Below are positions 42,990 to 56,899 of a stretch of DNA of 64,000 nt, piece after piece. The position numbers and the translations under genes are program-made. The first letter of the stretch is position 1. Each line of letters begins with the position of its first letter. Under the pieces are notes generated by a model. The model searched no databases, was not told where the DNA came from, and worked only from the letters and a program-made list of their open reading frames with translations. The stretch comes from a virus, in IMG/VR virus record IMGVR_UViG_3300046737_000169, positions 1 through 64,000 of that record; one strand, written 5' to 3'.

Positions 42990-43685
42990 ATGAAGAAGAT
43001 GTTTCTCGCGTCCGCGCTGGCACTGGCCTGCTCGGCGAATCTGGGAGCCACTCTGCTCAGCACGCTCGTTGCTGGCGGTTCGCTTTCCAATGCCAACATC
43101 ACCATCGATAACTTCGCGTTCACGCGCACTTGCAGCGGCGTCGGCGTATGCGCGCCCTTGGACGCCAGCGGTATTGACGTAACGCTGGTAGGCAATCAGA
43201 TCCGCTTCGCCGGCGGCTTCACCGCCCTTAGCAATGGCGGCTTCGCTACCGCAGATTTCCTCATCGCCTACGATCTTCAGTCCACTCTCGCCATTGGCGG
43301 CGTGGGTCTGCTGTTTAACGGCGCCGTAGTGGGAGATCAGTCCGCCGCCCAAGTGGTCGAGACCGTGCTGGCGACCGTGCCCTTCCTGCACGTCGCCGGT
43401 CAAGCCCAGGTCAACGCGCCCGGCGGCCCGCTCGCTGATGTGGCTATCCTCGACGCCGCCTACCAGGATCTGCGGATCGTCAAGGACATCTTCCTCGTGG
43501 GCTCCGATACCGAGGGCCTCGGCTACGCGACGATCTCGCTGATCGATCAGTTCTACGCCGGACCCGGCGTTGACCCGTTCTGCGTCGATGGGACGTGCGA
43601 CGATGTGCCGGAGCCGGGCACCTACGGCCTGATGGGCTCGGCCCTGATGGGCATCTACCTGATCCGCCGCCGTAGGGTAAGCTAG
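42990..43685 (+). CDS. PEP-CTERM sorting domain protein (moron)
   Basis: Signal peptide; C-terminal VPEPGTYGLMGSALMGIYLIRRRR. Confidence 0.9.
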   Translation: MKKMFLASALALACSANLGATLLSTLVAGGSLSNANITIDNFAFTRTCSGVGVCAPLDASGIDVTLVGNQIRFAGGFTALSNGGFATADFLIAYDLQSTLAIGGVGLLFNGAVVGDQSAAQVVETVLATVPFLHVAGQAQVNAPGGPLADVAILDAAYQDLRIVKDIFLVGSDTEGLGYATISLIDQFYAGPGVDPFCVDGTCDDVPEPGTYGLMGSALMGIYLIRRRRVS

Positions 43686-43724
43686 AGTCTCTTCCTCCTC
43701 CAGGGAAGCGAAGCTACGAAACTC

Positions 43725-43773
43725 AAAAGGGCGTCCCGGCAACCATCATCACCGGGGAACGCCCTTTTTTTTT
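43725..43773 (+). terminator. Rho-independent terminator
   Basis: AAAAGGGCGTCCCGG..CCGGGGAACGCCC followed by T9. Confidence 0.75.
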
Positions 43774-43790
43774 ATTTCGAGGTGAAACAC

Positions 43791-44585
43791 ATGCTCAAAA
43801 TTTCTGTCCTCGCGACATCGAGCGCCGGCAACGCTACGTTCGTCAGCGATGGAACCACCCGCCTGTTAGTCGATGCCGGACTCTCGCTCTACGACACCGC
43901 CGAGAGGCTCGCCGCGATCGGCGAAGACATCGACCGGATCAACGCCGTGCTCCTGACGCATCCGCATTCGGACCATGCGTTCGGCCTCACTACGCTCATC
44001 AAGCGCTGGCGCCGCGGCGGCGCCTTCGTGCCGGTGTACTGCTCGGCCTCCACATTCGAGGCGCTCGGCCAGATGATTCCGCCGCACTGGTATCGGCACG
44101 TTGCCCAGCACGACGAGTGGAAGGTTGGAGAATTGCACTGCGAGACGTTCGCCGTCGAGCACGACACCGGCGAGCCGCTCGGCTTCACCGTCGCCGATAC
44201 CGGGGGCAGGCGCGCCACGTTCGCGCTCGACCTGGGCAAGATCGACGGCTACCTGGGCGAGTACCTCGCCTGTGCGGAAGTGCTGTTCCTCGAGTCCAAT
44301 CACGATCCGGAGATGCTCGCGGCCGGACCGTACCAGTACAAGCTGAAGCAGCGCATCGCGCAAACGCACTTGTCGAATGCAGCCGCCTGTAAATGGATCG
44401 AGGAGCACATGACCTCGCGTACGGGTCACTTGCTCCTCGGTCACTTATCGAAAACCACCAACGATCCGGAACTGGTGCGCCTGATGGCCATGCGGGCGCT
44501 CAACGAGCGCGGCCTGGATTCGGGCGTCGTCGAAGTGATTGCGCCGGGAGAGCCGCCTTCAGGGCCGCTCGTCATCGACGACTAG
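43791..44585 (+). CDS. MBL-fold metallo-hydrolase (YycJ/WalJ-like)
   Basis: SSAGNA, LLVDAG, THPHSDH, EHD, LESNHD..L..GPY, HLSN, HLS..N. Confidence 0.9.
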   Translation: MLKISVLATSSAGNATFVSDGTTRLLVDAGLSLYDTAERLAAIGEDIDRINAVLLTHPHSDHAFGLTTLIKRWRRGGAFVPVYCSASTFEALGQMIPPHWYRHVAQHDEWKVGELHCETFAVEHDTGEPLGFTVADTGGRRATFALDLGKIDGYLGEYLACAEVLFLESNHDPEMLAAGPYQYKLKQRIAQTHLSNAAACKWIEEHMTSRTGHLLLGHLSKTTNDPELVRLMAMRALNERGLDSGVVEVIAPGEPPSGPLVIDD

Positions 44586-44836
44586 CACTCGCAGTTCTGC
44601 CAGGAGCGCCCGCACTCCGAGCAAAGGCCGGTGCGCGGGTGTCCAGCCGCCTGAGCGTAGGTGTCGGTCCAGGGCTCGGTCGTCGCCTCGACGGTCTGGC
44701 GCAGAACCAGGTCGTCGTCCGCCGGCTCAGCCGCCTGAGGTTCAGCCGCCTGAGTCAGCCGCCTCTTCTTCTCGGCGTTGGCCGCCTGCATCCGCGCCAG
44801 GGCCTCGCGTTGCGCGGGCGTCATCGGTATTGCCAT
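44582..44836 (-). CDS. Early-region hypothetical protein
   Basis: GAGGAG RBS; C-terminal CSECG..CEC. Confidence 0.6.
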   Translation of the reverse strand: MAIPMTPAQREALARMQAANAEKKRRLTQAAEPQAAEPADDDLVLRQTVEATTEPWTDTYAQAAGHPRTGLCSECGRSWQNCEC

Positions 44837-44849
44837 AGCTTTATTCTCC

Positions 44850-45119
44850 TCACGACTTCGGCCTCTTGGGGCAGTTGGCCCAGTGCCCGCGCAGGGTCGT
44901 CCCGCTGATGATGGCTCCGCAGCCCCACCAGCACTTGACCGACACGCCCTTGGGCCTCCCCAGGTTCCGGGGATCGCCCTTCTTGCGCCCCGGCTTCTTC
45001 TTCGGCGGTCCAGCCGCCCGTGCGGCGCTCACCGAGTTCGGGCACTCGGTGTGGTGCGCCTGATCGAGCCGCTCGAAAATGAACAGCCCGCAATTGCACT
45101 CAACCTGTTGTTGTTCCAC
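44850..45119 (-). CDS. Basic Zn-binding early protein
   Basis: GAGGTG RBS; CNC..H..C and CWWGCG..H...C. Confidence 0.6.
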   Translation of the reverse strand: MEQQQVECNCGLFIFERLDQAHHTECPNSVSAARAAGPPKKKPGRKKGDPRNLGRPKGVSVKCWWGCGAIISGTTLRGHWANCPKRPKS

Positions 45120-45123
45120 TCCC

Positions 45124-45184
45124 TTCACCTCTCATTGGGGAAATATCCCAGGAGGAGCGCTCGCAAGCGCCCTCCCTGCGATGC
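45124..45184 (-). repeat. Intergenic two-hairpin element, copy 1
   Basis: GCATCGCAGGGAGGG-cgcttgcgagcgc-TCCTCCTGGGATATTTCCC..GAGGTGAA. Confidence 0.85.
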
Positions 45185-45355
45185 TTACCGCATGTTGGCG
45201 ATCATCTGGTTCACCTTGCCTTGCCGCTTGTCCGGCGGCAGCGCGTCCATGATGTGCTGCGCCAGCATGAGCACCGCATGGGCCTCCTGCTTCGACATCT
45301 CGACCGTGATCTTGTCTGTGGTCTTCTTCAACTGGTCCTCGTTTCCCGCGTCCAT
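45185..45355 (-). CDS. Early-region hypothetical protein
   Basis: MDAGNEDQLKK..; stop abuts the repeat. Confidence 0.5.
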   Translation of the reverse strand: MDAGNEDQLKKTTDKITVEMSKQEAHAVLMLAQHIMDALPPDKRQGKVNQMIANMR

Positions 45356-45416
45356 CCGGCGATGGATTCGCGCCTGGAGCCGCCCGTCAGGACGGCCCCT
45401 CGGTGCGAGCCCTCCG

Positions 45417-46202
45417 CTACCGCGAGAACGGCTCGACAAAGATCGCGTACTCGCGCCCCTTGCCAATGCCCTCGATGGTCACCGTCTCGCACGCGCCGTC
45501 CATGCCGAACGCTTCCCAGAGTTGCCGGGTCCGCTCGTCGCTCCGGCCTACGGTGAACAGTAAGCTCGGCTCAGGCGCGGGCTCGACCTTGAAGTACATG
45601 CCATCGGCGAACCACTCGGCGAGGTGGGCGTGGACGTGGAACGAGGCGCTGCCGATCTGCATCGTGGAGTACAGCGACACCGGCGCGCCCCCGGTGTCCT
45701 GGACCGGCACGCCGTCGCGGTACTCGTCATCGCCGATAGCCTCCTCGTTGACCTTCCACTCGAAGTCGCTCGCCCTTGAAATGCGCACCACGTCGTCCTC
45801 GTTGTACTCGCCAGCACGCGCACCCGGCTGCGGAATCGGCGAACAGTCCTCACGGTCGCACTCGGACACCTCGCCCGCCCAGTCGCAGTGAGTGCAGTAC
45901 GCGGGCGAGTCCGGCCCCCACTCGCGCGTGTCGTCCTCGACCTCGGTTTCGACATGGTCGATCCCGTGATCGACGATGCGCGCCTCGATGTTCTGCGTCA
46001 CATACAGCTTGTCGGACTTCGCGCACCTGGGGCAGCAGAAACGCGGAGTGTAGATCCCTGCGGCGTCCTTGATTCCGAGCGCCATGCCCGCCCGTTTAGC
46101 CGCCAGCCAATCGTTGTAGCTCATCTGCGTGACGTTGTGCGCCACGTCCGCCTGCCAGTCTTCCACCGGCCACAGAATTTCAGTCGCCTGTTTTACGTCC
46201 AT
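45417..46202 (-). CDS. Acidic Zn-ribbon early protein
   Basis: GAGGTG RBS; CPRC..CTHC. Confidence 0.65.
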   Translation of the reverse strand: MDVKQATEILWPVEDWQADVAHNVTQMSYNDWLAAKRAGMALGIKDAAGIYTPRFCCPRCAKSDKLYVTQNIEARIVDHGIDHVETEVEDDTREWGPDSPAYCTHCDWAGEVSECDREDCSPIPQPGARAGEYNEDDVVRISRASDFEWKVNEEAIGDDEYRDGVPVQDTGGAPVSLYSTMQIGSASFHVHAHLAEWFADGMYFKVEPAPEPSLLFTVGRSDERTRQLWEAFGMDGACETVTIEGIGKGREYAIFVEPFSR

Positions 46203-46366
46203 CACTTCACCTCTTCTTCTTTCTCTTCGCCCAAAAATAGAAACAGCCAGCACTCGGTCCCTTCCACCTCCAGCGTCTCGCCGCTGAGGAGGATCACGCC
46301 GTCGTCGCCTACCCGCTCCTTGACCTTCGCCACAAACCGCCGCAACTCTTTGACCGTGACCGCCAT
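46202..46366 (-). CDS. Early-region protein (54 aa, not in ORF track)
   Basis: MAVTVKELRRFV..EEEVK*; TGATG coupling at both ends. Confidence 0.6.
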   Translation of the reverse strand: MAVTVKELRRFVAKVKERVGDDGVILLSGETLEVEGTECWLFLFLGEEKEEEVK

Positions 46367-46665
46367 CACTTCACCTCAACCTTTCTTCGGTTCTCTAATA
46401 CGTGCGCGATGGCCTGCTCGACCAACGCATCGCCCAGGCGCGCAAAGCGCCGGTCAGCCGCCTGTCGGGCGCGCTTCTCATACTCTTCGCGTGACCACGG
46501 GAGGAACACGGCCCGCCCGCCCAGGCCCTTGGCCTCGATGCGGCACTCTTCGCGCGTCATCAGGTAGCTGAGCCCCGGAGCCTTGAAAGTGTCGCGCCAC
46601 CGGCCCGTGACCGGATCTCGGCGCGAGCCCTGTAGCTTGTACTCAAACACCGGCTTCTTCTTCAT
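46366..46665 (-). CDS. Early-region hypothetical protein
   Basis: Coupled; ends EVK*. Confidence 0.6.
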   Translation of the reverse strand: MKKKPVFEYKLQGSRRDPVTGRWRDTFKAPGLSYLMTREECRIEAKGLGGRAVFLPWSREEYEKRARQAADRRFARLGDALVEQAIAHVLENRRKVEVK

Positions 46666-47207
46666 CGCTTCCCCTCCATCGGACACGCCTCGTCATGCTC
46701 TTCGCCGTACCAGGAGCGGTCGTCGCAGTCGCACACCGGGTCGTAGTCGCTCCAGTGGTTGTCCAGGTGATCGGCCAGATCCTTCGCGCCAGCCGCCCGT
46801 AGCGCGGCGAGGATAGCCGCGTGCTGCTCGCTATCGACCAGCAACTGCCGCACGCCCGTAGGTTCGTCGTCGCCCTCCTCTTCGTCGTTGGCCTTGTCCG
46901 CGCAACCGGGGCAAAGCTCGCGGTCCTCAGAGTCCCATCCCCAGTCGCCTGAGTCGGACGGGTTCACGTCCACGCGCTTGCACTCTTCGCACACGCGGAT
47001 GCCCGCCTCGTCGTTGCCGATCCAGACCCACGCCTGTACGTAGGCCCCGATATCGTCCTCGCCGTCGCGCGACACCGGCGCTTCGTCGTCCACCTCCAGC
47101 GTGCCTTCGTCGTAGTGAACGCGGATGGCCGCTGCCCGGTAGGCGTTGTCCAGGAGTTCTTTGTTGTCCTCGTTCATCGGGCTCGCATCACGAACCTTCT
47201 TTGCCAT
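46662..47207 (-). CDS. Acidic Cys-rich early protein
   Basis: GAGGTG RBS; LEVDDEAPVS..GAYVQAWVW; CEEC..CPGC. Confidence 0.65.
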   Translation of the reverse strand: MAKKVRDASPMNEDNKELLDNAYRAAAIRVHYDEGTLEVDDEAPVSRDGEDDIGAYVQAWVWIGNDEAGIRVCEECKRVDVNPSDSGDWGWDSEDRELCPGCADKANDEEEGDDEPTGVRQLLVDSEQHAAILAALRAAGAKDLADHLDNHWSDYDPVCDCDDRSWYGEEHDEACPMEGKR

Positions 47208-47401
47208 CACCTCACCTCCCTGGCGCGGGCGCGCTTGCGCTCGCGCATCCAGATATCGTCGTCGCGCCGGTCGTTGTCGCCAACAAGCCAGCCCATCATC
47301 CACATGCTCTGCTCGATCTTGGAGAGCGTAGCGGGCGCTTCGCAGGGAAGTCCCCGCAGGCCCGCCGCGCGCCCGTCATCGGAGACGTTAGGCTTTGCCA
47401 T
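47207..47401 (-). CDS. Early-region hypothetical protein
   Basis: GAGGTG RBS; coupled. Confidence 0.55.
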   Translation of the reverse strand: MAKPNVSDDGRAAGLRGLPCEAPATLSKIEQSMWMMGWLVGDNDRRDDDIWMRERKRARAREVR

Positions 47402-47885
47402 CGCCCTTCACCTCCATGTCAAGCTCCAGCCGCTCGCACAGGTCTTCGAGCGAAATGCCTTCGCAGATGTCGTCGTTTTCGAGTTCGACAACATCGCCGT
47501 CTTCGCCGAAAGCATCCTGCAACTCCTGCTCTAGTTCGTGCAGCGCATCCCAGTAGTGCGACTGCGCCGCCTGCGCCCGTTCGAGTGAATCGCGCACCTC
47601 GCGGTGTGGGTCCGGCTCCGGCTCTTCTTCTGCCGCTGGCCCCTGGTCTGAGAACACCTCGAAGCGCCCGCGCCAGTCTTCCATGAACTCGCCCAGGTTG
47701 TCGTAGATATCCGCCTCGCCGGGTTCGTCGCCCACCTGGACCTGCATACTCGCGCCGCTGTTCTCGCGCAGGTAGACCGGCAACCGGCGCGGCTCTGACT
47801 TGAGCTTGCCGTGCGCGGCGATGTCCGGGGGCAATGCCCCGGCATCGACTATGCCGATTTGAAACGTCACTTTCTTCGCCGCCAT
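47388..47885 (-). CDS. Highly acidic early protein
   Basis: GAGGTGAAGTGATG junction; D/E-rich. Confidence 0.65.
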   Translation of the reverse strand: MAAKKVTFQIGIVDAGALPPDIAAHGKLKSEPRRLPVYLRENSGASMQVQVGDEPGEADIYDNLGEFMEDWRGRFEVFSDQGPAAEEEPEPDPHREVRDSLERAQAAQSHYWDALHELEQELQDAFGEDGDVVELENDDICEGISLEDLCERLELDMEVKGDGKA

Positions 47886-48166
47886 CACTTCACCTCCTCG
47901 AAGCGGATGCGGAACTTCCGCCCGTCCTTCGTTGTGATCTCTTGGCCGTCCTCGAACTCCAGAGAGTTGATGAACATGAGCGTCCCCGGATGGTCAGGGT
48001 CTTCCTCGTCCCCCGGATACTCCAGTCCGTTCACCTCGGCCTCGCGCTCGGCCAGCCGCCGCGCCGCCCCAAATTCGTCGTCGTCCGGCTCGGCCTCCAT
48101 GAGTGCGCCACTCAAGCAGTCCTCATCGGCTCCGTACTCGCGCCACTGCAAAATCGTCAATACCAT
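47885..48166 (-). CDS. Highly acidic early protein
   Basis: Starts after repeat copy 2; ends EEVK*. Confidence 0.6.
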   Translation of the reverse strand: MVLTILQWREYGADEDCLSGALMEAEPDDDEFGAARRLAEREAEVNGLEYPGDEEDPDHPGTLMFINSLEFEDGQEITTKDGRKFRIRFEEVK

Positions 48167-48173
48167 TACCGCT

Positions 48174-48234
48174 TTCACCTCGGGAAGTGTCCCAGGAGTG
48201 GCAGCCGCCCGTGCTGCTGCCCTCCCTGCGATGC
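48174..48234 (-). repeat. Intergenic two-hairpin element, copy 2
   Basis: GCATCGCAGGGAGGG-cagcagcacgggcggctg-CCACTCCTGGGACACTTCCCGAGGTGAA. Confidence 0.85.
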
Positions 48235-48238
48235 TTTC

Positions 48239-48811
48239 CTAGACCGTCACCGGCACAAACTTCCAGTCCTGGCCCAGCGAGTCCTTCATGTCTTCCAGGC
48301 ACGCATAGTCATCGTCGTCACCGGCCCCCTCCATCGCCACGCGCACCAGACCGTCCGAGAGCCGGTAGACCTTGAACGCAGTTCCCTCGCCGCTCTCAAT
48401 CGAGCCCAGGTGCTCACCCGGATACGGCTGCGGCTCGTCGAACACAAGCACCGGCGGGTCTTCCCACGGCCCCTCGGAATCCCAGTAGTCAACCACCTTG
48501 TCAACCTCGGACATGAGCGGCTCAAGCGCCATGTGGTAGTCGTTGATTACGTCGTAGCCGGAGTTGCCGTAAATCAGGACCACTTCGCCCAGGAGCGCCA
48601 GCCGCCCGTCCGCGTCGCGCGTGGCATCCACATACAGGTGGTCGTCGTCGGTCGTCATGAGCGCGCGCATGATCTCGTTCGCCTTGCGTGATTGCCACAA
48701 GACAATCTCTTCGCCGTTGTGGACGCTGATGTTGTGGCCCCTGGCGAGCGCAGTCTGCACAAACGTGCCGATCACATGCCGCTCGATAAACTGCCTGATT
48801 CTCACTGTCAC
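48239..48811 (-). CDS. Early-region protein
   Basis: ISVHNGEE..LMTTDDD..VVLIYGN.G.DVINDY pattern. Confidence 0.65.
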   Translation of the reverse strand: MTVRIRQFIERHVIGTFVQTALARGHNISVHNGEEIVLWQSRKANEIMRALMTTDDDHLYVDATRDADGRLALLGEVVLIYGNSGYDVINDYHMALEPLMSEVDKVVDYWDSEGPWEDPPVLVFDEPQPYPGEHLGSIESGEGTAFKVYRLSDGLVRVAMEGAGDDDDYACLEDMKDSLGQDWKFVPVTV

Positions 48812-49188
48812 TTCTTCACCTCTTCTTTCGCTTCCTGATTCAGCTTCGCTTCGAGCGCCAACTCGGCCTGGACTACCCGCCTGTACTCGCGCGTGGGCTC
48901 CCAGATGCCGCAGAGGCACTGGAGCAGGTTGTCTCCGGCTGAGTCCCACAGTTCGCAGTAGTAGGCTTTATCCTCCGGCTGAATGATGCCGCTGGGCCGG
49001 TCCAGGTGCGCGTCCTTGTCTATGTCCCACTCGAAATACCAGTCCTGATCGAGCGCGAACCGCTCAGCCGCCGCGAGCTTCTCAGCGGTGCGCACTTTGC
49101 CTTGCTCGGGCGTCTCGCGCGTGTCGTCCCAGGAGTAGCCCGCGTTGTCATAGAAGAACGCCGCCGCGCCCTTCAGAATCGTTGCCAT
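48808..49188 (-). CDS. Early-region protein
   Basis: GAGGTG RBS; FFYDNAGYSW..LAAAE..LCGI..YRRVVQAELALE. Confidence 0.7.
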   Translation of the reverse strand: MATILKGAAAFFYDNAGYSWDDTRETPEQGKVRTAEKLAAAERFALDQDWYFEWDIDKDAHLDRPSGIIQPEDKAYYCELWDSAGDNLLQCLCGIWEPTREYRRVVQAELALEAKLNQEAKEEVKK

Positions 49189-49223
49189 CTTTCACCTCGC
49201 TGCGGGGAATGCCCGCTTACTAG

Positions 49224-49252
49224 ATTGTGCCAGGATCAATAGTCGCGTGCAA
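49224..49252 (-). promoter_or_regulatory. sigma70-type early promoter
   Basis: TTGCAC-17-CACAAT; contains TTGATCCTGGCA, also present at 55169-55180. Confidence 0.6.
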
Positions 49253-49407
49253 CTATTTTCCTGGGATATTCGGAAAGAATTAGCCGCCTGTCAGCCGCCT
49301 GTCAAAGTTCAGCCGCCCGTGCCGGCAGCCGCCTGTCGCCGCGGGCTGCCGGCGCGAGCGCCGCGCCCTGGCGCGGGACCGGCGCGGGACCGGCGCGCCC
49401 TGGCGCG

Positions 49408-49584
49408 CTACCCGATGCGCGCCTCGATGGTCGAGAGCAGCAAGTCCGCCTGGATCTGCTGCGTCCAGAACGCCTGGGCAATGCGCGGCGTTTCCCAGGC
49501 CGTCTCGGCGCTCTTCTGGTAGATGTCTATCGCCACGCGCAGCGCGCCCTGAACGACGCGCAATTGTTCTTCGGTCAAGTTCAT
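49408..49584 (-). CDS. Early-region hypothetical protein
   Basis: Starts after repeat copy 3. Confidence 0.6.
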   Translation of the reverse strand: MNLTEEQLRVVQGALRVAIDIYQKSAETAWETPRIAQAFWTQQIQADLLLSTIEARIG

Positions 49585-49587
49585 CGG

Positions 49588-49646
49588 TTCACCTCGGGGA
49601 AAGTATCCCAGGAGGGGCACTCACCTGAGTGCCATCCCTGCGATGC
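49588..49646 (-). repeat. Intergenic two-hairpin element, copy 3
   Basis: GCATCGCAGGGATGG-cactcaggtgagtg-CCCCTCCTGGGATACTTTCCCCGAGGTGAA. Confidence 0.85.
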
Positions 49647-50378
49647 TTATGCCGCCGCCTGCGCGCCCGCGATCTGGATGAGCGCCGCCTGCACCCGCTT
49701 CCGGCCCGCGCCGTGTGCGGCGAAGCCGATCACGATGCGCTCTTCGCGCAGCCGCGCGTCGTCCCAGCACAACCGGCAGCGGATGCACTGCGTGCCGTGG
49801 GTATCGTGCGGGCAGGGCAGCACGGTGAATCCAGCCGCATGTTTCCATGCCTTCGCGCCCGCGTGCGCGGCCACGACGAGCGCCGCCGCCCAACCTTGGG
49901 AGAGTGCCTGCGTCACGTCCGCCGCCGTCTCACACGACGCCAGAACCGACACCGCGCCCCAGGAGGCGCGCTTGACCTTGCGCCATGCGTGGGTGTAGGT
50001 CCAGGCCCGCCGCCGGTCGCGCCGCATGAAACGCTCAGCCGCCCGTGCGACGATGCGCGCCGCGCCGTTGGTCCGGCAGTCGCCCACGATATGGAGCCGC
50101 AAGTCATGCAGGCCCGACAACCGGTCAATCTCGCGCGCCTCTTGCCGCGCGATCAGGAGCGGGTCAACCTGGGCGCGCCGCCCGCCCGCCGCCGCGTTCA
50201 GCTTCGCCGTCTGCATCCCGACGCGGTCCTCTTCGCCGTAGCAGCCGCCGCCGTCAAAGAACGCGCAGCCTGGGTCACATGACGGCTGAGCCGCGCTCGT
50301 ATTCGAGCACGGCCCTGTTTTCGAGTTCCCGCTAATCTCTACCGCTTTGGCGAGCGGCTCGCGTAACGTGGGATTCAC
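49647..50378 (-). CDS. Cys-rich Fe-S/radical-SAM-like phage protein (Gp88/DUF7227-like)
   Basis: SGNSKTG..SCDPGC......CY; RLHIVGD; WTYTH; CP..CIRCRLC; IGFAAHG. Confidence 0.65.
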   Translation of the reverse strand: MNPTLREPLAKAVEISGNSKTGPCSNTSAAQPSCDPGCAFFDGGGCYGEEDRVGMQTAKLNAAAGGRRAQVDPLLIARQEAREIDRLSGLHDLRLHIVGDCRTNGAARIVARAAERFMRRDRRRAWTYTHAWRKVKRASWGAVSVLASCETAADVTQALSQGWAAALVVAAHAGAKAWKHAAGFTVLPCPHDTHGTQCIRCRLCWDDARLREERIVIGFAAHGAGRKRVQAALIQIAGAQAAA

Positions 50379-50626
50379 CGCGCCGCCTCCGCTGGCCGCT
50401 TGTCCCCGGCGAACATCGGCGCGGGCGGAATCCAGCCAAGCTGGGTTAGCACGGCTTCGAGTTCTTCGCAGTCCTCGTCCGTTGAGCACAAGCCCGCCGC
50501 CCATGCCTCACGCGGTCCGCGCGACTCATGCCCGTCAGCCTGCCCGCGCGCCCACCAGCCGCCCGCCGCGCCCAGGCCCGCGACTACCGCCGCGAGCGCG
50601 GCAACCTCAGCCACGCGCCGCCTCAT
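50375..50626 (-). CDS. Small membrane-anchored protein
   Basis: N-terminal TM; CSTDEDC. Confidence 0.55.
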   Translation of the reverse strand: MRRRVAEVAALAAVVAGLGAAGGWWARGQADGHESRGPREAWAAGLCSTDEDCEELEAVLTQLGWIPPAPMFAGDKRPAEAAR

Positions 50627-50877
50627 CGGCCCGCCCCTTCCTTCGGAAAGTCGGTGTAGGCGTCGTCAAAGGCGCGCTTGATGACCATGCGCCCGTAGAA
50701 TGGCCCATCCGTCTCGTCGGGCTGGTCCGCCTGCGCCCAGTGCATCAAGTCCTGAATCAGGTCGCGCGCCGTGTCGCCGTCGATCGGGCGCGTCTCATTC
50801 AGGTGCAGGGCATACGCCGTAAGCACCGCCCGCGCGCGCGCCGCGCAGGCTTCGTTCTTCTTCGTCAATACGTACAT
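50623..50877 (-). CDS. Early-region protein
   Basis: N..RA..L.AY..DLIQDLMHW pattern; after repeat copy 4. Confidence 0.65.
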   Translation of the reverse strand: MYVLTKKNEACAARARAVLTAYALHLNETRPIDGDTARDLIQDLMHWAQADQPDETDGPFYGRMVIKRAFDDAYTDFPKEGAGR

Positions 50878-50880
50878 CGG

Positions 50881-50951
50881 TTCACCTCGAAAGAATTGGG
50901 AGAAGCCCAGGAGGGACGCGAGCCGCCACGCTCGCGCCATCCCTGCGGTGC
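50881..50951 (-). repeat. Intergenic two-hairpin element, copy 4
   Basis: GCACCGCAGGGATGG-cgcgagcgtggcggctcgcg-TCCCTCCTGGGCTTCTCCC..GAGGTGAA. Confidence 0.85.
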
Positions 50952-50953
50952 TC

Positions 50954-51253
50954 TCAAATCGTGCAGCAGCCGCAGCAGGGCGCGTCTTCGCACCGGCCCG
51001 CCTTGTTGCGGGTAAACACCGCGCCACTGCTGAACCGGATCACCGACACTGGCGCGTAAGCATCCCGCCAGTACGGCGAGCGCTGCCCCTTCTTCGCCCG
51101 CGCCCGCCTGGGCGCGCCCGCCTCAACGAGCGCCCGCGCCTCATCGGCCCGCGCATCGGGCACGCGCCACGCTTTGAGCGCCGCATCCCAGTCGCCGCCC
51201 ATAGCGCGCAACTCGGCCCGGTGCGGGTACGTGTTTCCCGTAATCATTGCCAT
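50954..51253 (-). CDS. Conserved early phage protein
   Basis: GNTYPHR..L...GG.WD...KAW; C-terminal GRCEDAPCCGCC. Confidence 0.7.
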   Translation of the reverse strand: MAMITGNTYPHRAELRAMGGDWDAALKAWRVPDARADEARALVEAGAPRRARAKKGQRSPYWRDAYAPVSVIRFSSGAVFTRNKAGRCEDAPCCGCCTI

Positions 51254-51256
51254 TGT

Positions 51257-51451
51257 CTAGTCCTCCTCATCAATGGGCTCATCGGCCCAGTAGTTCGCAT
51301 CAGTGAAAATTTCCGGCCTGTACTGGGCGCGTTTCTTCGCCTCGCACCGGCTGCACACGTAGCCGCAGGCAATGCCGCGTGCGTCATAGAGCACGTAGCG
51401 CGTCTGGCCGGAGCCGCACCCGCACGGGCGTATCGGAGGGAGCCAACTCAT
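51257..51451 (-). CDS. Small Zn-finger early protein
   Basis: CGCGSG..YDARGI....C..C..YRPEIF. Confidence 0.7.
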   Translation of the reverse strand: MSWLPPIRPCGCGSGQTRYVLYDARGIACGYVCSRCEAKKRAQYRPEIFTDANYWADEPIDEED

Positions 51452-51681
51452 GACCGGCCCCCCTTCTTTCTGGCCGCGCGTTCTTCCCGCTCGGCGCGTG
51501 CGAGCAACTTGCTGGCTAGGTCGTAAACGGCGTCATAGGGAACCGCGAGCCTGCGCCGCGTCCCCTTCAATCGCAGTTCAATATGTGATGGGTGCAACTC
51601 GACCAGGAGGGCGCGTGTGCGCCCCTGGTCCCTTTTGAGCGTCGCCGTCTCCCGGCGGACCGGCTTATCGAGGCGCGTCAT
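51448..51681 (-). CDS. Basic early protein
   Basis: MTRLDKPVRRET..RLKGTR; TAATG coupling. Confidence 0.6.
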   Translation of the reverse strand: MTRLDKPVRRETATLKRDQGRTRALLVELHPSHIELRLKGTRRRLAVPYDAVYDLASKLLARAEREERAARKKGGRS

Positions 51682-51848
51682 TACAGCGGCTCCGATTCGA
51701 TCAGGATTACATCGTTGACCCGGAGCCCGGTCACGCGCCGCGTTTCGCCGTCCGTCTCCACGTACACCGGGCGCGAGCCCGCGCCCTGGACCTGAGCGGT
51801 CCAGAGCAGCTTGGCTAGCTCCGCGCCTGAGAGCGTGTCGATTCTCAC
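51681..51848 (-). CDS. Early-region protein (55 aa, not in ORF track)
   Basis: GTG RIDTLSGAELAKLLW..; coupled at both ends. Confidence 0.5.
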   Translation of the reverse strand: MRIDTLSGAELAKLLWTAQVQGAGSRPVYVETDGETRRVTGLRVNDVILIESEPL

Positions 51849-52102
51849 CGTACACCGTCCGGCAGTACAGTCACCTCACCGGCGAGCGTGCCGGGGTAGC
51901 GGTCGCCCGCCGCCATGCGCCCGCCTGGGGACACCGTCACCAGTCCGCGCGCAATGTCCAGCGCGTGATGTACGCTCGGGCCTGCCTCGAAACGGAACCG
52001 CTGCGAGCCGCCGCCGTACCTGGGTTCAAAAGTTTTCTCGACCGTGACGCCCCAACGGCCATCAATCAGGTCAAGATGAACGGACACGATTTGGTTTTCC
52101 AT
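51845..52102 (-). CDS. Early-region hypothetical protein
   Basis: GAGGTG RBS. Confidence 0.6.
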   Translation of the reverse strand: MENQIVSVHLDLIDGRWGVTVEKTFEPRYGGGSQRFRFEAGPSVHHALDIARGLVTVSPGGRMAAGDRYPGTLAGEVTVLPDGVR

Positions 52103-52115
52103 CGCTTCACCTCTT

Positions 52116-52295
52116 CTAGAACAACTTCGGCTGCGGGTCCGATACCGGAGCCGCGAACAAACCGCCCTGCTCGACGCGAGCGCGCCGCAGCTTGCGGCGC
52201 TTCTCTTCCGGCGTCAAGGGACAGTCAAAACCAGCCGTCAACTGCTCGCCCAGGAGGCGCGCTTGGTCGTCCGGCTGCTCTTCTATCTCGATCAC
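52116..52295 (-). CDS. 59-aa stand-alone paralogue of a polyvalent-protein segment with two QxxLF motifs (not in ORF track)
   Basis: MIEIEEQPDDQARLLGEQLTAGFDCPLTPEEKRRKLRRARVEQGGLFAAPVSDPQPKLF; GAGGTG RBS; 32/46 identical to the segment encoded at 17653-17790. Confidence 0.85.
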   Translation of the reverse strand: MIEIEEQPDDQARLLGEQLTAGFDCPLTPEEKRRKLRRARVEQGGLFAAPVSDPQPKLF

Positions 52296-52310
52296 GATTC
52301 ACCTCTCTTT

Positions 52311-52341
52311 GACTATACGCCAGTAACAACGATTTGGTTAC
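52311..52341 (-). promoter_or_regulatory. ECF-sigma-like promoter, copy A
   Basis: GTAACCAAA-N13-CGTATAGTC; same boxes and spacing at 55195-55225. Confidence 0.65.
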
Positions 52342-52360
52342 TAAATCTTGCGAAATATTT

Positions 52361-52729
52361 TCAGGACTCGGCTTCAACCGTGTGGCGCTCGACTTCCTCC
52401 CCCACAAACGGCTCGCGCGGGTCCGCGTGGACCGTGACCGGCCCGCCGCCGCGCCCGTCGTCGTAGGTCAGCGACACCGCGCCCAGGCACCGGCGCAGGC
52501 CCTCGGCTGCCGCCTCCTGGTCGTTGATCCGCCGCAGGACGATGTTGTACACCTCGGACTCGCCGTCCGAGAGCGTGTGCTTTTCCACCGCCAACCGGCT
52601 GAGGTAGTCCCCGGCCTCGTCTTCGATGTAGATCATTTCCAGCGGAGTGGTGCGGGCGAGCAGTTCTAGCTCGCGCGCAAGGTCCGCCGCCGTCATCACC
52701 ACGGCTGTATGCGTTCTGGTCATCATCAC
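52361..52729 (-). CDS. Early-region protein
   Basis: After repeat copy 5; TLSDG.SEVYNIVL motif. Confidence 0.6.
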   Translation of the reverse strand: MMMTRTHTAVVMTAADLARELELLARTTPLEMIYIEDEAGDYLSRLAVEKHTLSDGESEVYNIVLRRINDQEAAAEGLRRCLGAVSLTYDDGRGGGPVTVHADPREPFVGEEVERHTVEAES

Positions 52730-52731
52730 GT

Positions 52732-52810
52732 TTCACCTCGAAAAGAATTACGGGAAAGAATCCCACCGGCGCGGGCGCGCCCGGTCACACGCGCCCGCCC
52801 TCTGCGACTC
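52732..52810 (-). repeat. Intergenic two-hairpin element, copy 5 (divergent)
   Basis: GTCGCAGAGGGCGGGCGCG-tgtgaccggg-CGCGCCCGC..GGGATTCTTTCCC..GAGGTGAA. Confidence 0.65.
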
Positions 52811-52812
52811 TC

Positions 52813-53118
52813 TTACCGCTCGCCCGCCAGACACTTGCGCTGGCCTTCGCGCACCGACTCGACAATGGCGCGATGGCGCGCCGTCTCCCAGTCCGCCTCA
52901 TAGCCCGCCATGACCGGCGAGGCCGCCAATGGCCGCACGCTGGACAGTTCGACCCACTGGGCGCCGTCGCCCGCCACCGGCGCCACTTGCAGCCGCTGCT
53001 TACCCCAGGACGCCTTGACATCGATCACCCGGCAGTCAATCCACAGTTCACCGGCGCGCAACTGGCACAACTCGCCCACTGCGCCAATCATCCCCGTTGC
53101 CGTGTAGCGCGTCGTCAC
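52813..53118 (-). CDS. Early-region protein
   Basis: V.DVKASWG..R.QVAPVAG.G..WV pattern. Confidence 0.65.
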   Translation of the reverse strand: MTTRYTATGMIGAVGELCQLRAGELWIDCRVIDVKASWGKQRLQVAPVAGDGAQWVELSSVRPLAASPVMAGYEADWETARHRAIVESVREGQRKCLAGER

Positions 53119-53627
53119 TAGCTCACCTCCGGCTTAATCAGATCGCCGCGCCCGTTGATGCGGATTCCCTTGGACGCGCCCAACTCGGGCTCGACCGGGC
53201 ACTGGATCGCCGCCGCGAGCCGCTCGGCCTTCCGGCGCTTGGCCACGTTCCAGCGCTTGACCACCGGCGGGAATCCCGGCTTCTCTTTGAGCGGGGATAT
53301 CTCACAGCCGAACTCGCACCCGATCCCGTTGCGCTGCCAGTCCAGGTCTTCCGGCTTAGCCTCGTACCATTTCGGCAACGTGACCGGGCGCGACATGATC
53401 CCCAGGTAGCCGTCCGACTCGAAGTAACCCATCACCACCGCCGGTCCGATGTCGTTCATCTCGATGCGGACCATCTGCCCGACTTCGGGCAGCGGGTTCT
53501 CACCGGACCACTTCAGCGCAATCCCGCGCTCATTGTGGAACTCGCGCATGGGCGAGCCCTCATCGTCAATCAGCCGCCCCGTGGCCATTGGCCGGGGGAT
53601 AAAAAACCGCTCTTTCATGCGTTCCAT
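53118..53627 (-). CDS. Early-region protein
   Basis: After repeat copy 6; WSG..P.P.VG..V....IG...V.GYF..DGYLG. Confidence 0.65.
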   Translation of the reverse strand: MERMKERFFIPRPMATGRLIDDEGSPMREFHNERGIALKWSGENPLPEVGQMVRIEMNDIGPAVVMGYFESDGYLGIMSRPVTLPKWYEAKPEDLDWQRNGIGCEFGCEISPLKEKPGFPPVVKRWNVAKRRKAERLAAAIQCPVEPELGASKGIRINGRGDLIKPEVS

Positions 53628-53637
53628 AATCTGACCT

Positions 53638-53709
53638 TTCACCTCGACAAGAATTTCGGGAAGTCTCCCAGGAGTGGCGCGCGCGATCCGCGCGCCCTCC
53701 CTGCGGTAC
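53638..53709 (-). repeat. Intergenic two-hairpin element, copy 6
   Basis: GTACCGCAGGGAGGG-cgcgcggatcgcgcgcg-CCACTCCTGGGAGACTTCCC..GAGGTGAA. Confidence 0.85.
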
Positions 53710-53713
53710 TTTC

Positions 53714-53896
53714 CTATTCGCCCGCCCGCGCCCAGAAGCGCACCGTACCCATGCGGTCCAACCACTTGATTTGCGCCCGGTAGGACTCGCCGTCCGCCAG
53801 ATACGCCGCGACGTTGAACAGGATCGACGCGCCCACCCCAGGCGCAACCGTGTCGATCCGCTGCAAGATGATCCCGTATGGGCTGAGGCGCGCCAT
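53714..53896 (-). CDS. Early-region hypothetical protein
   Basis: TAATG coupling. Confidence 0.55.
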   Translation of the reverse strand: MARLSPYGIILQRIDTVAPGVGASILFNVAAYLADGESYRAQIKWLDRMGTVRFWARAGE

Positions 53897-54510
53897 TAGA
53901 AGAGCCTCCCTTGATCGCCCGTCTCGACCGGCGCAGCCTGGGCCGCCTCGGCGAGCTTGACCGCCTCCGCGCCCGCCTTCGAGAGCACCCGCGCCAAGAA
54001 CCCCTCGATCCGGGGAATCTCTTTGTTGAGGTACGCCACCTTGCGGTCGATATCGTCCTGGCACCGCTTGACCCAGACCGCGCCGCCCTCGCCGCGCCGG
54101 TCCAAGCTGCGCTCATGGTCGCCGTTGCGCTCCACGTCGTACACCGGATGAAACAGCCAACTGGACTCGGTGAAAATATCCTTCCCGCCCGCGTCCGCGA
54201 TGAAATAGAGCCCGCTCCCGAAATACTCGCGCCCGCGCGGCATGGCCTCCACCGGCCCGGTGAGAATCTCCAGGTAGTTCCGGTATTTCACCAGCAACTT
54301 CGCATTCTTGCGGTAGAGCGTGCCGAGCGTGGGCGTCGCCTGGAGTATCCGGTCGATACAATCGAGCCCGTACTGCTGAACCAAGCCGTCCTTGTACGTC
54401 ACGCGCGCCACATGCTTAATGCCCTGGCTGCACCGGTCGCAGCACTGAACCGGGGACGCCGTGTAGTAGTACACCGAGCGCACCGCCGTCGTTCCTAAAA
54501 TCTGAGTCAT
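53896..54510 (-). CDS. Zn-binding early protein ending in QGRLF
   Basis: CDRCSQGIKH..YGLDC; C-terminal clamp-binding-like motif. Confidence 0.7.
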   Translation of the reverse strand: MTQILGTTAVRSVYYYTASPVQCCDRCSQGIKHVARVTYKDGLVQQYGLDCIDRILQATPTLGTLYRKNAKLLVKYRNYLEILTGPVEAMPRGREYFGSGLYFIADAGGKDIFTESSWLFHPVYDVERNGDHERSLDRRGEGGAVWVKRCQDDIDRKVAYLNKEIPRIEGFLARVLSKAGAEAVKLAEAAQAAPVETGDQGRLF

Positions 54511-54520
54511 AATTCCTTCC

Positions 54521-54591
54521 TCACCTCGAGTTTTCGGGAAGTCTCCCAGGAGGGAGGCGCGCCCACTCGCCGCGCCCCATCCCTGCGGTAC
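54521..54591 (-). repeat. Intergenic two-hairpin element, copy 7
   Basis: GTACCGCAGGGATGG-ggcgcggcgagtgggcgcgcc-TCCCTCCTGGGAGACTTCCC..GAGGTGA. Confidence 0.85.
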
Positions 54592-54834
54592 TTACCGGAT
54601 GCCCGCGAGCCGCTCGGCGATTTCGCGCTCGCGCTCGGCGAGCACTTCCTTGGCCCGCACAACCTGCTCAGCCGCTACCCATACCTGCACGCGCGGGGGA
54701 GGCAAACGCTTGTCCCTCCACTTGGGATGCTCCATCCGCGAATAGATCCCCGCTGCAATCAGCGAATCGAGCAGGCCCGCCGCCCGCATCCCCGTCGCCG
54801 TCTCGGCAATCAACGTCATCGTCGCCTGCGCCAT
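54592..54834 (-). CDS. Early-region protein (DUF2007-like)
   Basis: A.LL.S.L.AAGI..VQVWV.......AKEVL pattern. Confidence 0.55.
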   Translation of the reverse strand: MAQATMTLIAETATGMRAAGLLDSLIAAGIYSRMEHPKWRDKRLPPPRVQVWVAAEQVVRAKEVLAEREREIAERLAGIR

Positions 54835-54837
54835 GAC

Positions 54838-55137
54838 CTACTTCACCTCCGCAGCCGCTGCCGCCGCCCACGCGCCGTTGCCCGCCTTCGCCTTCTTCGC
54901 CGCCGCCGCCTTCTCACACTCGGCGTCGGTAGTGCAAGCGGCGCGAGTGCACCTCTTGCACTCGCGCAACCCGTGCGCCTCCGCTACCGAACGCTCAGAA
55001 GTGAGCTTGTGAGCCTTCGCGCCCTTCCGGACACTGCACGTCGCGCTCAAGTGATACACCTTCGAGGACGGCCCGAAATGAACCGCCTCCCCGAACATCA
55101 TGCTCGCCAAGAGCAACCCCAAAATTATCGACTTCAT
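54838..55137 (-). CDS. Secreted Ada-like metal-binding small protein
   Basis: Signal peptide; KVYHLSATC..A.AHGLRECKRC. Confidence 0.65.
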   Translation of the reverse strand: MKSIILGLLLASMMFGEAVHFGPSSKVYHLSATCSVRKGAKAHKLTSERSVAEAHGLRECKRCTRAACTTDAECEKAAAAKKAKAGNGAWAAAAAAEVK

Positions 55138-55194
55138 CTCTGTCTTCTCACCTCGATCTAGAATTTTCTGCCAGGATCAAACGATCCTACATAC

Positions 55195-55225
55195 GACTAT
55201 ACGACAATGCGAAGGTTTTGGTTAC
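55195..55225 (-). promoter_or_regulatory. ECF-sigma-like promoter, copy B (head of early array)
   Basis: GTAACCAAA-N13-CGTATAGTC. Confidence 0.65.
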
Positions 55226-55290
55226 ATATCACACAAAGATTTCTCAAAATAATTTTGTGGCGTTGTAACCGGCTTTATGCTCATACATAT

Positions 55291-56136
55291 ATGAGCGCTC
55301 AACCCGGCGCGCTGCCGCCCGCCTTGCGCCCCGGCGCGGGTCGCCTTTGCTCTATCTGCTCTCATCCGGACCGGGACCGCATCGATGCCGCCCTCATTCA
55401 ACCCGGCGTCAACCGCGCTAAATTGGCGGGAAAATTCGGGATCAATGATACTTCCCTCCAGCGACATATGGAAAACCACTTACCTGCTAGACTGGCTCGA
55501 AATGCGGAAGTCCTTGTACGTGAGTCAGATGCGGCGATGGTCAAGTTCGCCATCGCGGAATCCGTCAACCGGATGCGGCGCATACAGAAGAGAGCGGACG
55601 CGCTCGCCCAGGTAGTAGAGGAGCGGGCCGCCGCCGGTGACGCGAGCATCCCAGGTGACCGGACCGGCCTGCTAGTGAAGCGCCCCCGGTCCTACCGGAT
55701 CGGTAAAGACGTGTTCAGGGAAGTCATCGATGTAGAGGTTGACGCCGCGCTGCTCGCAGAAGAGCGCGCCCTGGAGCGCGCCGCCGTCCTCGAAACCGGC
55801 GAGTGGCTCGCTCAGACCGGCAAAGGCCAGTGGGGCACCGGCGCAGGCGGGAACGGTCCACTCGTTGTGGTCCTGGCCTCCGGCCTGCAGCCGCTACCGG
55901 GCGAGAGCCCCGGCGAGGCGCGCCATCGTATAACGGATGCTCGCCGCAAGGTGACCCGGACCGCCGCCGAGCAGGAAACCGTGGGGCAAACCGCCGCCCT
56001 GGCCCTCACCGATATCGAGCTACCCGGCGAAGCCGGGGAGGAGGATACCCGGCAAGGTGCATTAGCGGGTACGTCCCAGGCGAGCCAGGACGCGAGCCCA
56101 GACGTAGCCTACGATGATGACGTAGACGAGACGTAG
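55291..56136 (+). CDS. Terminase small subunit-like HTH protein
   Basis: CSICSHPDRDRIDAAL..LAGKFGI..SLQRH...HL HTH; helical middle; GPLVVVL strand. Confidence 0.55.
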   Translation: MSAQPGALPPALRPGAGRLCSICSHPDRDRIDAALIQPGVNRAKLAGKFGINDTSLQRHMENHLPARLARNAEVLVRESDAAMVKFAIAESVNRMRRIQKRADALAQVVEERAAAGDASIPGDRTGLLVKRPRSYRIGKDVFREVIDVEVDAALLAEERALERAAVLETGEWLAQTGKGQWGTGAGGNGPLVVVLASGLQPLPGESPGEARHRITDARRKVTRTAAEQETVGQTAALALTDIELPGEAGEEDTRQGALAGTSQASQDASPDVAYDDDVDET

Positions 56137-56899
56137 ACTCGAGACGTACCGTAGATGAAGGTGTAGGCCCGCACGCGGAGCCCGCGCGCGAGCCAACCCC
56201 TCCCCCCGCGCCCGCGAACCGGGGCCCCCCGCGCGCCTGCCCAAGGGGTGTTGTCGAGGGCATGTGAAGTACAACGTGGGAAGTGGAGCATGTCGACGGC
56301 ATGTGAAGTCCAGCGTAGGAGTCCAGTGTAGGAGGGGTCTCGAGTGAAGCGGAAGATGCGGGTGAGGTGGACGTGTTCGGACTATGAGAAGCACGAGCAC
56401 AGGTGGAAGTGGGTGGCGTGGGTGTGTGGGCGGATGCAGTATTTGTGGAGGGTATTTGCGGCCGGCGCACCGCCTGGCCTGAGTTAGTTCCGGATTGTGG
56501 AGGGAGTTTTTGCGGTGTGGTGGAGGGAGTTTTTGCAGAACGGCCAAATTGGCCGATATGGGGTGGGAGAGTGTACTGCTCGGATTTGGAGGGGGATCGA
56601 CAACCGCGGATGATTTTTAATCAACGGGAGTTGATACGGAGCTCGGCCGTGCCGGCCTTGCGGGTAGCTCACGGGGGGAGCTATACCCCCATAAGAGTTT
56701 TGGGTGGGGCCCCGTATTTGAGGGTGGTGGAGGGGTTTTTCCGGATCCGGATCGGGTTGAACGTAGTGTACGGTTACCCCCCCCCTCCGGCCGTTTTTCG
56801 TCTGGCTCAGACGTTGGGGGCGAGGGAATCCCAATGATTTTGACCGTCCGGCGCTTGTTAGGCGGTGCCGGGCCTCACGCTTCGGGAGTTCCGCGGATC

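Follow-up and report, generated by a model that had tools for sequence, protein, structure and literature searches.

Covarying hairpins between early genes form a structured RNA family in an uncultured soil phage

Bacillus phages SP82 and SPO1 carry repeated, sequence-related hairpins among their early genes that are processed by the host Bs-RNase III. The RNase III sites of these phages and of T7 also have sequence blocks in common, although no dedicated protein is known to bind them. In T7, the early gaps 0.4/0.5, 0.7/1 and 1.2/1.3 measure 62-80 nt from the stop codon to the next ribosome-binding site (RBS), and they hold irregular hairpins, similar in size to those described here, with shared sequence blocks. 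These gaps contain the RNase III sites R0.5, R1 and R1.3 (Dunn and Studier 1983). T4-type phages have promoter-early stem-loop (PeSL) cassettes (PMC2839356, PMC4122927), whose stem-loops have no described U-tract and reduced the expression of a reporter in vivo to the same degree as a strong terminator (PMC2839356). Cluster K mycobacteriophages have an SAS at the start codon and ESAS, which are 17-bp imperfect inverted repeats 4-13 bp apart (PMC3203893).

The window, that is, the whole 64,000-nt stretch analyzed here, belongs to IMGVR_UViG_3300046737_000169, the 73,764-bp genome of an uncultured, high-GC phage of about 74 kb from soil. Its terminase shares no more than 26% identity with the terminase of any phage in culture. 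An element of about 60-70 nt recurs seven times between 45133 and 54599, always on the minus strand (Table 1). This number and orientation had been claimed in a preliminary description, and a covariance model built from 25 sequences (R2) indeed finds exactly seven copies in the whole genome, the next best match scoring 16.8 bits. The minus strand between 45170 and 54587 holds all six occurrences of CGCAGGGAKGG (0.15 expected by chance), and the 3' half CTCCTGGG-N4-9-TCCC-N0-16-GAGGTGA also occurs six times (0.00 expected). The divergent seventh copy (52733-52818) is picked up by a regular expression and by both covariance models, R1 and R2. A sister phage has nine copies, and in both phages they lie on the coding strand of the early array. 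These two phages and metagenome fragments together provide 25 non-redundant copies. No copy was found in 185,579 prokaryote species genomes or in more distant phages.

Each of the seven copies begins at the stop codon of one gene and reaches as far as the RBS of the following one, as the preliminary description had stated. The remaining long gaps in the array have promoter-like motifs and no element, which places the elements inside transcription units. Rfam 15 returned no match to the whole window at gathering thresholds and none to 44900-55300 at E values up to 1, so the element stays uncatalogued. Together with the fold and covariation described below, these observations support a lineage-specific structured RNA family that punctuates the early gene array.

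Table 1. Copies of the element (E1-E7) and promoter-like motifs in the early array. The preliminary description had located the copies by their 3' ends, at GAGGTGA.
Feature	Position	Strand	Context	R1 (bits)	R2 (bits)	MFE (kcal/mol)
E7	54531..54599	-	between stop of 54592-54834 (TAA within outer stem) and RBS + ATG (54510) of 53896-54510	68.7	61.7	-36.6, single hairpin
E6	53653..53717	-	between stop of 53714-53896 and RBS + ATG (53627) of 53118-53627	75.2		
E5 (divergent)	52748..52818	-	upstream of gene 52361-52726	42.4	36.2	-42.7
E4	50892..50959	-	between stop of 50954-51253 and RBS + ATG (50877) of 50623-50877	67.7		
E3	49593..49654	-	between stop of DUF7227 gene 49647-50378 and RBS + ATG (49584) of 49408-49584	64.8		
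E2	48177..48242	-	between stop of 48239-48811 and RBS + ATG (48166) of 47885-48166	74.3		
E1	45133..45192	-	after small ORF 45185-45331, before RBS + GTG (45119) of 44850-45119	72.4		
Promoter-like motif GTAACCAAA-N14-CGTATAG	55197..55225	-	upstream of first early gene; gap without element			
Promoter-like motif, second copy	52313..52341	-	exact twin of 55197..55225; element-free gap between 52361-52726 and 52116-52295			

The element was first described as two hairpins, but one long irregular hairpin is the better fold. What had been read as a second hairpin, GGGA-N4-TCCC, forms the 3' strand of an outer stem in 23 of 27 folds. Its partner is the 5' flank with the stop codon, so we consider the element a single hairpin. 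A local GGGA/TCCC hairpin, 96% paired but invariant, is a possible alternative fold. The long hairpin has about 20-26 bp, a stability of -30 to -43 kcal/mol across copies, and ends 0-16 nt upstream of the GAGGTGA ribosome site. Its outer stem, GGNAAG/YUUCCC, includes the upstream stop codon and is followed by a 2x2 loop, a UC/GA step and a conserved GxG mismatch. Above the mismatch, a 5-bp basal stem that includes a G.U pair leads through another small loop to a GC-rich apical stem that varies freely. The fixed internal loop or mismatch noted earlier was confirmed: 24 of 25 copies keep GxG and 17 keep CxA. In E5, the outer stem is paired throughout (AGAGAGUC/GAUUCUUU) and the basal stem is altered.

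The fold is maintained by compensatory change. Among the 25 non-redundant copies, paired cells make up 86.7% of the total and both sides have changed in 13 of 21 pairs; none of 500 shuffled controls reaches the observed pairing or covariation, and slid controls are 37-59% paired. In diverged copies, the basal stem CAGGG/UCCUG becomes CGCUG/UGGCG or CGGCG/CGCUG, and the outer stem GGGAAG/UUUCCC becomes GGAAAG/UUUUCC or AGAGA/UCUUU. A variant of E4 (V4, contig L067) has a compensatory change from G-C to A-U at the base of the apical stem. The apical stems differ in sequence and stay complementary, as had been claimed. Paired columns contain 63 G.U versus 10 A.C combinations, and the fold is therefore selected on the sense strand, pointing to RNA. 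In a comparison of the two strands, the sense strand folds better for 20 of 27 copies, at a mean of -34.9 against -31.5 kcal/mol. The reported absence of a U-tract was likewise confirmed. An intrinsic (Rho-independent) terminator was rejected: the long hairpin is never followed by a U-run, and a terminator scan flags only a small 3' hairpin with a T-rich tail in E5 and E6.

Like the T7 sites (R0.3, R0.5, R1, R1.1 and R1.3), the elements occur in several copies within a few kilobases of early polycistronic mRNA. In both phages, each copy occupies a gap of 60-90 nt from a stop codon to the next RBS and folds into an irregular hairpin about two helical turns long, which has internal loops and sequence blocks common to the copies. 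However, T7 conserves the upper stem, whereas the soil phage element conserves the lower stem and varies at the apex. It also has the stop codon built into the helix, and its cleavage is predicted. SP82 and SPO1 resemble the soil phage in their repeated, related hairpins between early genes, although here we infer the processing. The soil phage genome differs from SPO1 in its high GC content and has no similarity to the SPO1 terminal-repeat early region. Searching T7 400-8200 and SPO1 1-14000 with R1 and filters off gave at most 8.9 bits (E at least 1.1), so no homology was detected. The kind of signal is familiar from T7 and SPO1; the family in the soil phage is new.

Among the options raised in the preliminary description, an RNA processing signal fits the evidence best. 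Tentatively, and with slightly less than even confidence, we interpret the elements as intercistronic mRNA processing or stability signals of the RNase III type. Building on the observed copy number, position, strand, fold and covariation, this interpretation would have the elements transcribed within polycistronic early (leftward) messages. The hairpin would then most likely be a cut site for a double-strand-specific endonuclease such as a host RNase III, or at least a barrier to decay. Cleavage would divide a long early message into cassette-sized pieces, the upstream one retaining a 3' hairpin. The downstream piece would start with the freed 3' strand; this could refold as the small GGGA-N4-UCCC hairpin, immediately before a ribosome site left exposed. 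Incidentally, the conserved arms would also provide short stretches of homology where early genes are sometimes swapped between related phages. No RNase or dsRNA-binding domain was found in 36 early proteins, and a host enzyme would therefore be the simplest agent.

Backed by 25 non-redundant copies and by covariation, the element would enter Rfam-type catalogues as a new and well-supported RNA motif family. It also adds a case of phages punctuating early ORFan operons with a standard hairpin, from an uncultured high-GC soil phage that has no cultured relatives. If the hairpins are cleaved, the T7/SPO1 model of mRNA segmentation would extend to a very distant lineage, and high-GC hosts would gain a portable part for insulation or processing.

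The lower arms, including GxG, are more conserved than RNase III needs, which could instead mark a specific protein-binding site. A phage or host protein might recognize the lower helix (GGGAAG-CA-UC-G / G-GA-CA-UUUCCC with the GxG mismatch) and jointly control translation or stability of the downstream cassettes. The arms are far more conserved than adjacent genes, both mismatches are kept while the apical stem is free to vary, and the helix lies within 3 nt of the Shine-Dalgarno sequence in most sister-phage copies. We nevertheless consider such a protein improbable: E5 and the L069 copy persist with a fully paired helix in place of the internal loop, spacing to the Shine-Dalgarno sequence ranges from 0 to 16 nt, the early proteins have no recognizable RNA-binding domain, and the T7 and SP82/SPO1 sites share their sequence blocks with no dedicated binding protein known. 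About equally improbable is that the lower helix (GxG and the CA/CA loop) docks a dedicated, unrecognized factor, either a phage RNA-binding or RNA-cutting protein for all early cassettes or a folded-strand recombinase, which would make the array a phage counterpart of the integron, a platform for both expression and exchange of ORFan genes. Attenuation has to be taken seriously as an alternative because PeSL stem-loops lower expression despite having no described U-tract, and we rate it unlikely though ahead of a binding protein. Each hairpin would partly stop or pause RNA polymerase, giving a stepwise fall along the early operons, or would be opened by a phage antiterminator. The hairpins are suitably intergenic, stable and GC-rich, a tested PeSL stem-loop cut reporter expression like a strong terminator (PMC2839356), and the terminator scan flagged E5 and E6. 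However, the T-rich tail is present in only two of seven copies, and seven to nine terminators in a row, with no more than three promoter-like gaps, would leave most early genes silent. A promoter scan of 43000-57500 found no sigma-70-type promoter in any element that might restart transcription, whereas PeSLs carry one; nor can the conserved arms be -35 and -10 boxes, since they are 30-45 nt apart at variable distance. The resemblance to PeSLs is otherwise close: both motifs run from the upstream stop codon to the Shine-Dalgarno sequence and start of the next gene, contain a GC stem-loop, and are found mostly ahead of ORFans, in an early region that is hyperplastic. The soil phage hairpin differs in spanning the whole element. 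The 13-bp SAS of cluster K (GGGATAGGAGCCC) is absent from all copies, and unlike SAS/ESAS the arms enclose a covarying stem-loop of 20-35 nt (6-11-bp stem), the whole element being one helix of 20-26 bp. That the copies are a selfish miniature palindromic repeat (REP, MITE or Correia-like), spread in non-essential gaps and functionless for the phage, is very improbable. They are palindromic, scattered among unrelated genes and homogeneous within a genome, but they keep one orientation and one register relative to stop codon and RBS, are confined to the early array, preserve their fold by compensatory changes, lack target-site duplications and are absent from the host-type genomes searched.

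The elements might also act at the DNA level, capturing or shuffling early cassettes as attC-like folded single strands or by PeSL-like homologous exchange, possibly with the help of a nearby tyrosine recombinase. This cassette-recombination reading is weakly supported, and we consider it more doubtful than a binding protein. The early genes between elements are almost wholly different in the two sister phages, in contrast to their conserved flanks. The sister phage has runs of single-gene units with elements on each boundary, and GGGACAUUUCCC is common to seven of its nine copies, a homogenization within one genome. Integron attC sites offer a parallel: they too are imperfect hairpins whose outer boxes are conserved and whose terminal structure varies, they have unpaired or extrahelical positions, and they follow immediately on the cassette ORFs, all in a single orientation. 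The phage, however, has no IntI, no RYYYAAC/GTTRRRY cores and no R-box-like core sites, its G.U pairs favor the sense strand, and the elements show neither a fixed crossover nor a consistent tie to the upstream ORF. The recombinase reported at 40426-41241 is present (PF00589) but generic; it lies 4 kb away beside ParB and replication-initiator genes, and its best matches are XerC/XerD-like, well under their cut-offs. TIGR02249 scores 36.1 bits versus a cut-off of 265, over the C-terminal 60 residues only. Integron-like or recombinase-driven shuffling, as first proposed, was thus not borne out by the TIGR02249 score, the sense-strand fold or the position of the junctions.

An RNA processing signal would allow gene exchange at the elements as a side effect, and gain or loss of genes does occur there. 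Three homology breakpoints coincide exactly with the edge of an element, and at one element the allele has been exchanged. At E6, homology with the variant contig L067 begins at the 5' edge (53722), and at E2 homology with L068 rises from 52% to 98% at the 5' edge. E1 has its breakpoint at the 3' edge, where homology with L071 stops just past the RBS, at 45124. At E3, the close variant L067 carries a different apical stem between flanks that are 90-96% identical. The claim that cassettes change at the elements therefore holds for these copies, but change is about as frequent at ordinary junctions. Junction position varies between the 5' edge and a point after the RBS, and inheritance is inconsistent, with E6 and E2 following the downstream gene and E1 the upstream gene. 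Element-free junctions or gene interiors hold at least as many breakpoints (52295, 51694, 51254/51449, 49190/48822, 48438 and 47865). Overall, about four junctions fall at element edges versus about seven elsewhere, at other gene junctions or inside genes, and elements occupy about 7 of 33 junctions, so the junctions are not clearly enriched at elements. As exchange is about equally frequent at ordinary junctions, the elements are at most homology patches, as are the PeSLs of T4-type phages, where some indel or replacement junctions between close relatives also fall at the motifs. The repeats thus coincide with, but do not monopolize, the mosaic junctions of this hyperplastic early region. The joint at E2 (48236/48438) is also present in a contig from an independent DNA run.

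The early genes of this phage are separated by a repeated minus-strand element that occurs in seven copies (E1 to E7). Its 5' core, CGCAGGGAKGG, has six matches, all on the minus strand, against an expected 0.15, and the 3' half together with the RBS also has six, against 0.00 expected; the seventh copy is divergent. A whole-genome search with R2, a covariance model built from 25 sequences, returned exactly seven copies, the next best score being 16.8 bits. All seven span the gap from the upstream gene's stop codon to the RBS of the next gene, and Rfam holds no match, neither at gathering thresholds nor at E up to 1. The copy counts, the placement and the lack of an Rfam match bear out the preliminary description of a repeated element. 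The best R2 match outside the family (36489-36535, plus strand) is a GC-rich hairpin closely upstream of the replication-initiator gene and is probably an unrelated terminator or operator. The sequence CGGTAG-CGGAGGG...CTCCAGG that follows the stop of 45417-46202 (45335-45416, minus strand) is detected by neither covariance model; it may be a decayed copy, and an intact element occupies the same position in the sister phage.

Pattern scans and the model identified one sister phage, present both as IMG/VR G001 (74,233 bp, CheckV 100%) and as JGI contig Ga0247746_1000001. It carries nine element copies, every one inside the early array, and is collinear with this genome, with 66-85% nucleotide identity outside that array. 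Three metagenome fragments (L067, L068 and L071) represent a close variant of this phage (82-97% identical), and L069, L073 and L074 are fragments of further relatives. Scanned twice by pattern, 185,579 prokaryote species genomes yielded no true copy, so a host REP-like element was rejected. The early regions of T7 and SPO1 likewise lack a true copy, and 14 more distant, DUF7227-bearing viral loci have neither copies nor analogous repeats. A second pattern scan of viruses returned only chance matches, L002-L009 were dismissed as such, and no relatives came up when the divergent 309-aa gene was used as a protein query. The IMG/VR and JGI versions of the sister phage show 147 scattered, mostly single-base differences (G001 66633-74233 versus L072 4288-11817), including homopolymer lengths within elements. 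The JGI copies receive higher model scores, and errors in the assembly of the IMG/VR record probably account for the differences.

In 23 of 27 folded copies the element forms a single long irregular hairpin. The element described earlier is real, but its "GGGA-N4-TCCC" is the 3' strand of the outer stem of this one hairpin. The stop codon is part of the 5' strand of the outer stem (GGNAAG/YUUCCC), which is followed by a 2x2 loop (CA opposite NA) and a UC/GA step, above which a GxG mismatch is kept in 24 of 25 copies. The basal stem has 5 bp, CAGGG/UCCUG with one G.U pair, and a second small loop above it; the apical stem is GC-rich, 6-11 bp long and different in each copy. In an alignment of 25 sequences, pairing holds in 86.7% of cells, and both partners change in 13 of the 21 pairs. 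None of 500 shuffles reaches the real value, and sliding the partner reduces pairing to 37-59%. Diverged copies carry CGCUG/UGGCG or CGGCG/CGCUG as basal stem and GGAAAG/UUUUCC or the fully paired AGAGAGUC/GAUUCUUU as outer stem, and E4 of the close variant has a double change from G-C to A-U. The local hairpin GGGA/UCCC is 96% paired without any variation, and because its sequence is invariant, covariation speaks neither for nor against it. It may be the fold taken by the 3' strand after the long helix opens or is cut.

Paired columns contain 63 G.U against 10 A.C combinations, and in 20 of 27 copies the sense strand gives the more stable fold (mean -34.9 versus -31.5 kcal/mol), although the copies are related and these counts are not independent trials. 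The direction of the bias fits a structure selected in mRNA, and not in the antisense strand or in double-stranded DNA.

The record is a single virus contig of 73,764 bp, and the window covers its first 64 kb. Large virion-type genes occupy the plus strand from 161 to 38000 and encode, among other products, a replication initiator and a ParB-like protein, a beta-helix fibre, and a 3546-aa protein with both ddrB-ParB and DUF7178 domains. Past 63 kb come the terminase and capsid genes; no cultured phage has a terminase more than 26% identical to this one, and a host call from it was rejected on that account. The small minus-strand genes at 38634-55137 form an early-type array with a very strong RBS, GAGGTGA (33 on the minus strand versus 5 on the plus). 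Pfam names one of its 36 proteins, a DUF7227 protein, and recognises no RNase or dsRNA-binding protein among them.

The array's other long gaps contain promoter-like sequences in place of elements. An ECF-sigma-like -35/-10 pattern stands in both element-free gaps that head early transcription units; it is absent from the sister phage. The repeat-bearing gap has a promoter-like site, TTGCAC-N17-CACAAT, and shares the motif TTGATCCTGGCA...CTAG with the leader at 55160-55190. No sigma-70-type promoter lies within any element and no U-tract follows its hairpin. Since promoter-like motifs fill the other gaps, the elements sit inside transcription units, where they stand between runs of genes that overlap or are tightly coupled. 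Reading TGgGAnAyT in the 3' arm as an extended -10 was rejected, as in many copies the RBS is only 0-3 nt downstream, and as the 5' arm is just as conserved and pairs with the 3' arm. The 3546-aa ORF raised the idea of N4-type virion RNA polymerase hairpin promoters; it was rejected, since the protein matches no polymerase family and the elements vary in loop size and spacing. Shine-Dalgarno/anti-SD mimicry by the basal stem (GGGAGG/CCUCC) was rejected because diverged copies carry unrelated complementary stems.

Minus-strand features of the early array
Feature	Coordinates	Strand	Remark
Seventh element, divergent	52748-52818	minus	
GTAACCAAA-N14-CGTATAG	55197-55225	minus	exact twin of 52313-52341
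GTAACCAAA-N14-CGTATAG	52313-52341	minus	exact twin of 55197-55225
Repeat-bearing gap, ~220 nt, non-coding	49189-49407	minus	GC-rich hairpins, three direct repeats of GACAGGCGGCT

The T7 early gaps 0.4/0.5, 0.7/1 and 1.2/1.3 measure 62-80 nt from stop to RBS. They hold the RNase III sites R0.5, R1 and R1.3 (Dunn and Studier 1983). They match the elements in position, size and irregular shape, fold alike and, like the elements, have sequence blocks common between copies. The SP82/SPO1 sites offer a further precedent for RNase III-type processing. Given these likenesses and the array's lack of a recognisable RNase, we tentatively favour the elements as processing or stabilising signals for a host RNase III-type enzyme, a reading in which cleavage is presumed by analogy. 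Processing would leave the upstream mRNA piece with a retained 3' hairpin and would expose the RBS of the downstream piece. The elements could also attenuate transcription, which we consider unlikely. Somewhat less probable still are sites for a dedicated RNA-binding protein. That the elements are a selfish repeat seems very improbable. The motif family is new, since it matches no Rfam family and does not resemble the T7 or SPO1 sites; the kind of element, a hairpin repeated between the cistrons of phage early operons, is already familiar.

The preliminary description also put forward, as one option, an ssDNA recombination site that allows cassette shuffling. Gene content between elements is almost wholly different in the two sister phages while the flanks on both sides are conserved, and the cassette genes are not paralogues, so tandem duplication of gene plus element was rejected. 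Homology with the close variant breaks at the 5' edges of E6 (53722) and E2 (48236) and directly after the E1 RBS (45124), and the E3 apical stem is swapped (76% identity inside flanks of 90-96%). The 48236/48438 joint recurs in contigs of an independent DNA run; short contigs of four runs re-found three joints, all already in metagenome fragments. Some element edges are sites of gene gain and loss, but equally clear breaks occur at element-free junctions (52295, 51694, 49190/48822 and 47865/47896, and a precise single-gene indel at 51255-51448) and inside genes, as at 48438. A 284-aa gene of the sister phage (64299-65153) is split here by E2 and six ORFan genes; its counterparts are two chimeric halves (both minus strand), 48239-48811 with its N-terminal 118 aa and 45417-46202 with its C-terminal 153 aa. 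The junction position within the element varies, and the element is inherited with the upstream or the downstream gene, by case. The recombinase, a small protein of 271 aa, scores 36 bits against the IntI model (cut-off 265) and is a generic Xer-like enzyme. Because breaks also fall elsewhere, junctions are not fixed, inheritance is variable and the recombinase is generic, the integron-like reading is unsupported, and DNA recombination sites are an improbable explanation. At most, the conserved arms might serve as homology patches by analogy with promoter early stem-loops (PeSLs) of T4-type phages, whose conserved motifs have been so described (PMC2839356, PMC4122927).

The close variant, both in L067 and in a run X3 contig, precisely lacks a 64-aa gene (51257-51451, minus strand), which in the sister phage stands on the opposite side of its neighbour. 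Neither border bears an element, and the case is an indel plus transposition of one gene. The recombinase adjoins partition and replication genes, and dimer resolution or integration is a more likely role for it (40426-41241, minus strand) than cassette capture. With an SMC/AAA protein, the ParB-like protein and the replication initiator (30561-37491, plus strand), it looks like part of a plasmid-prophage maintenance kit.
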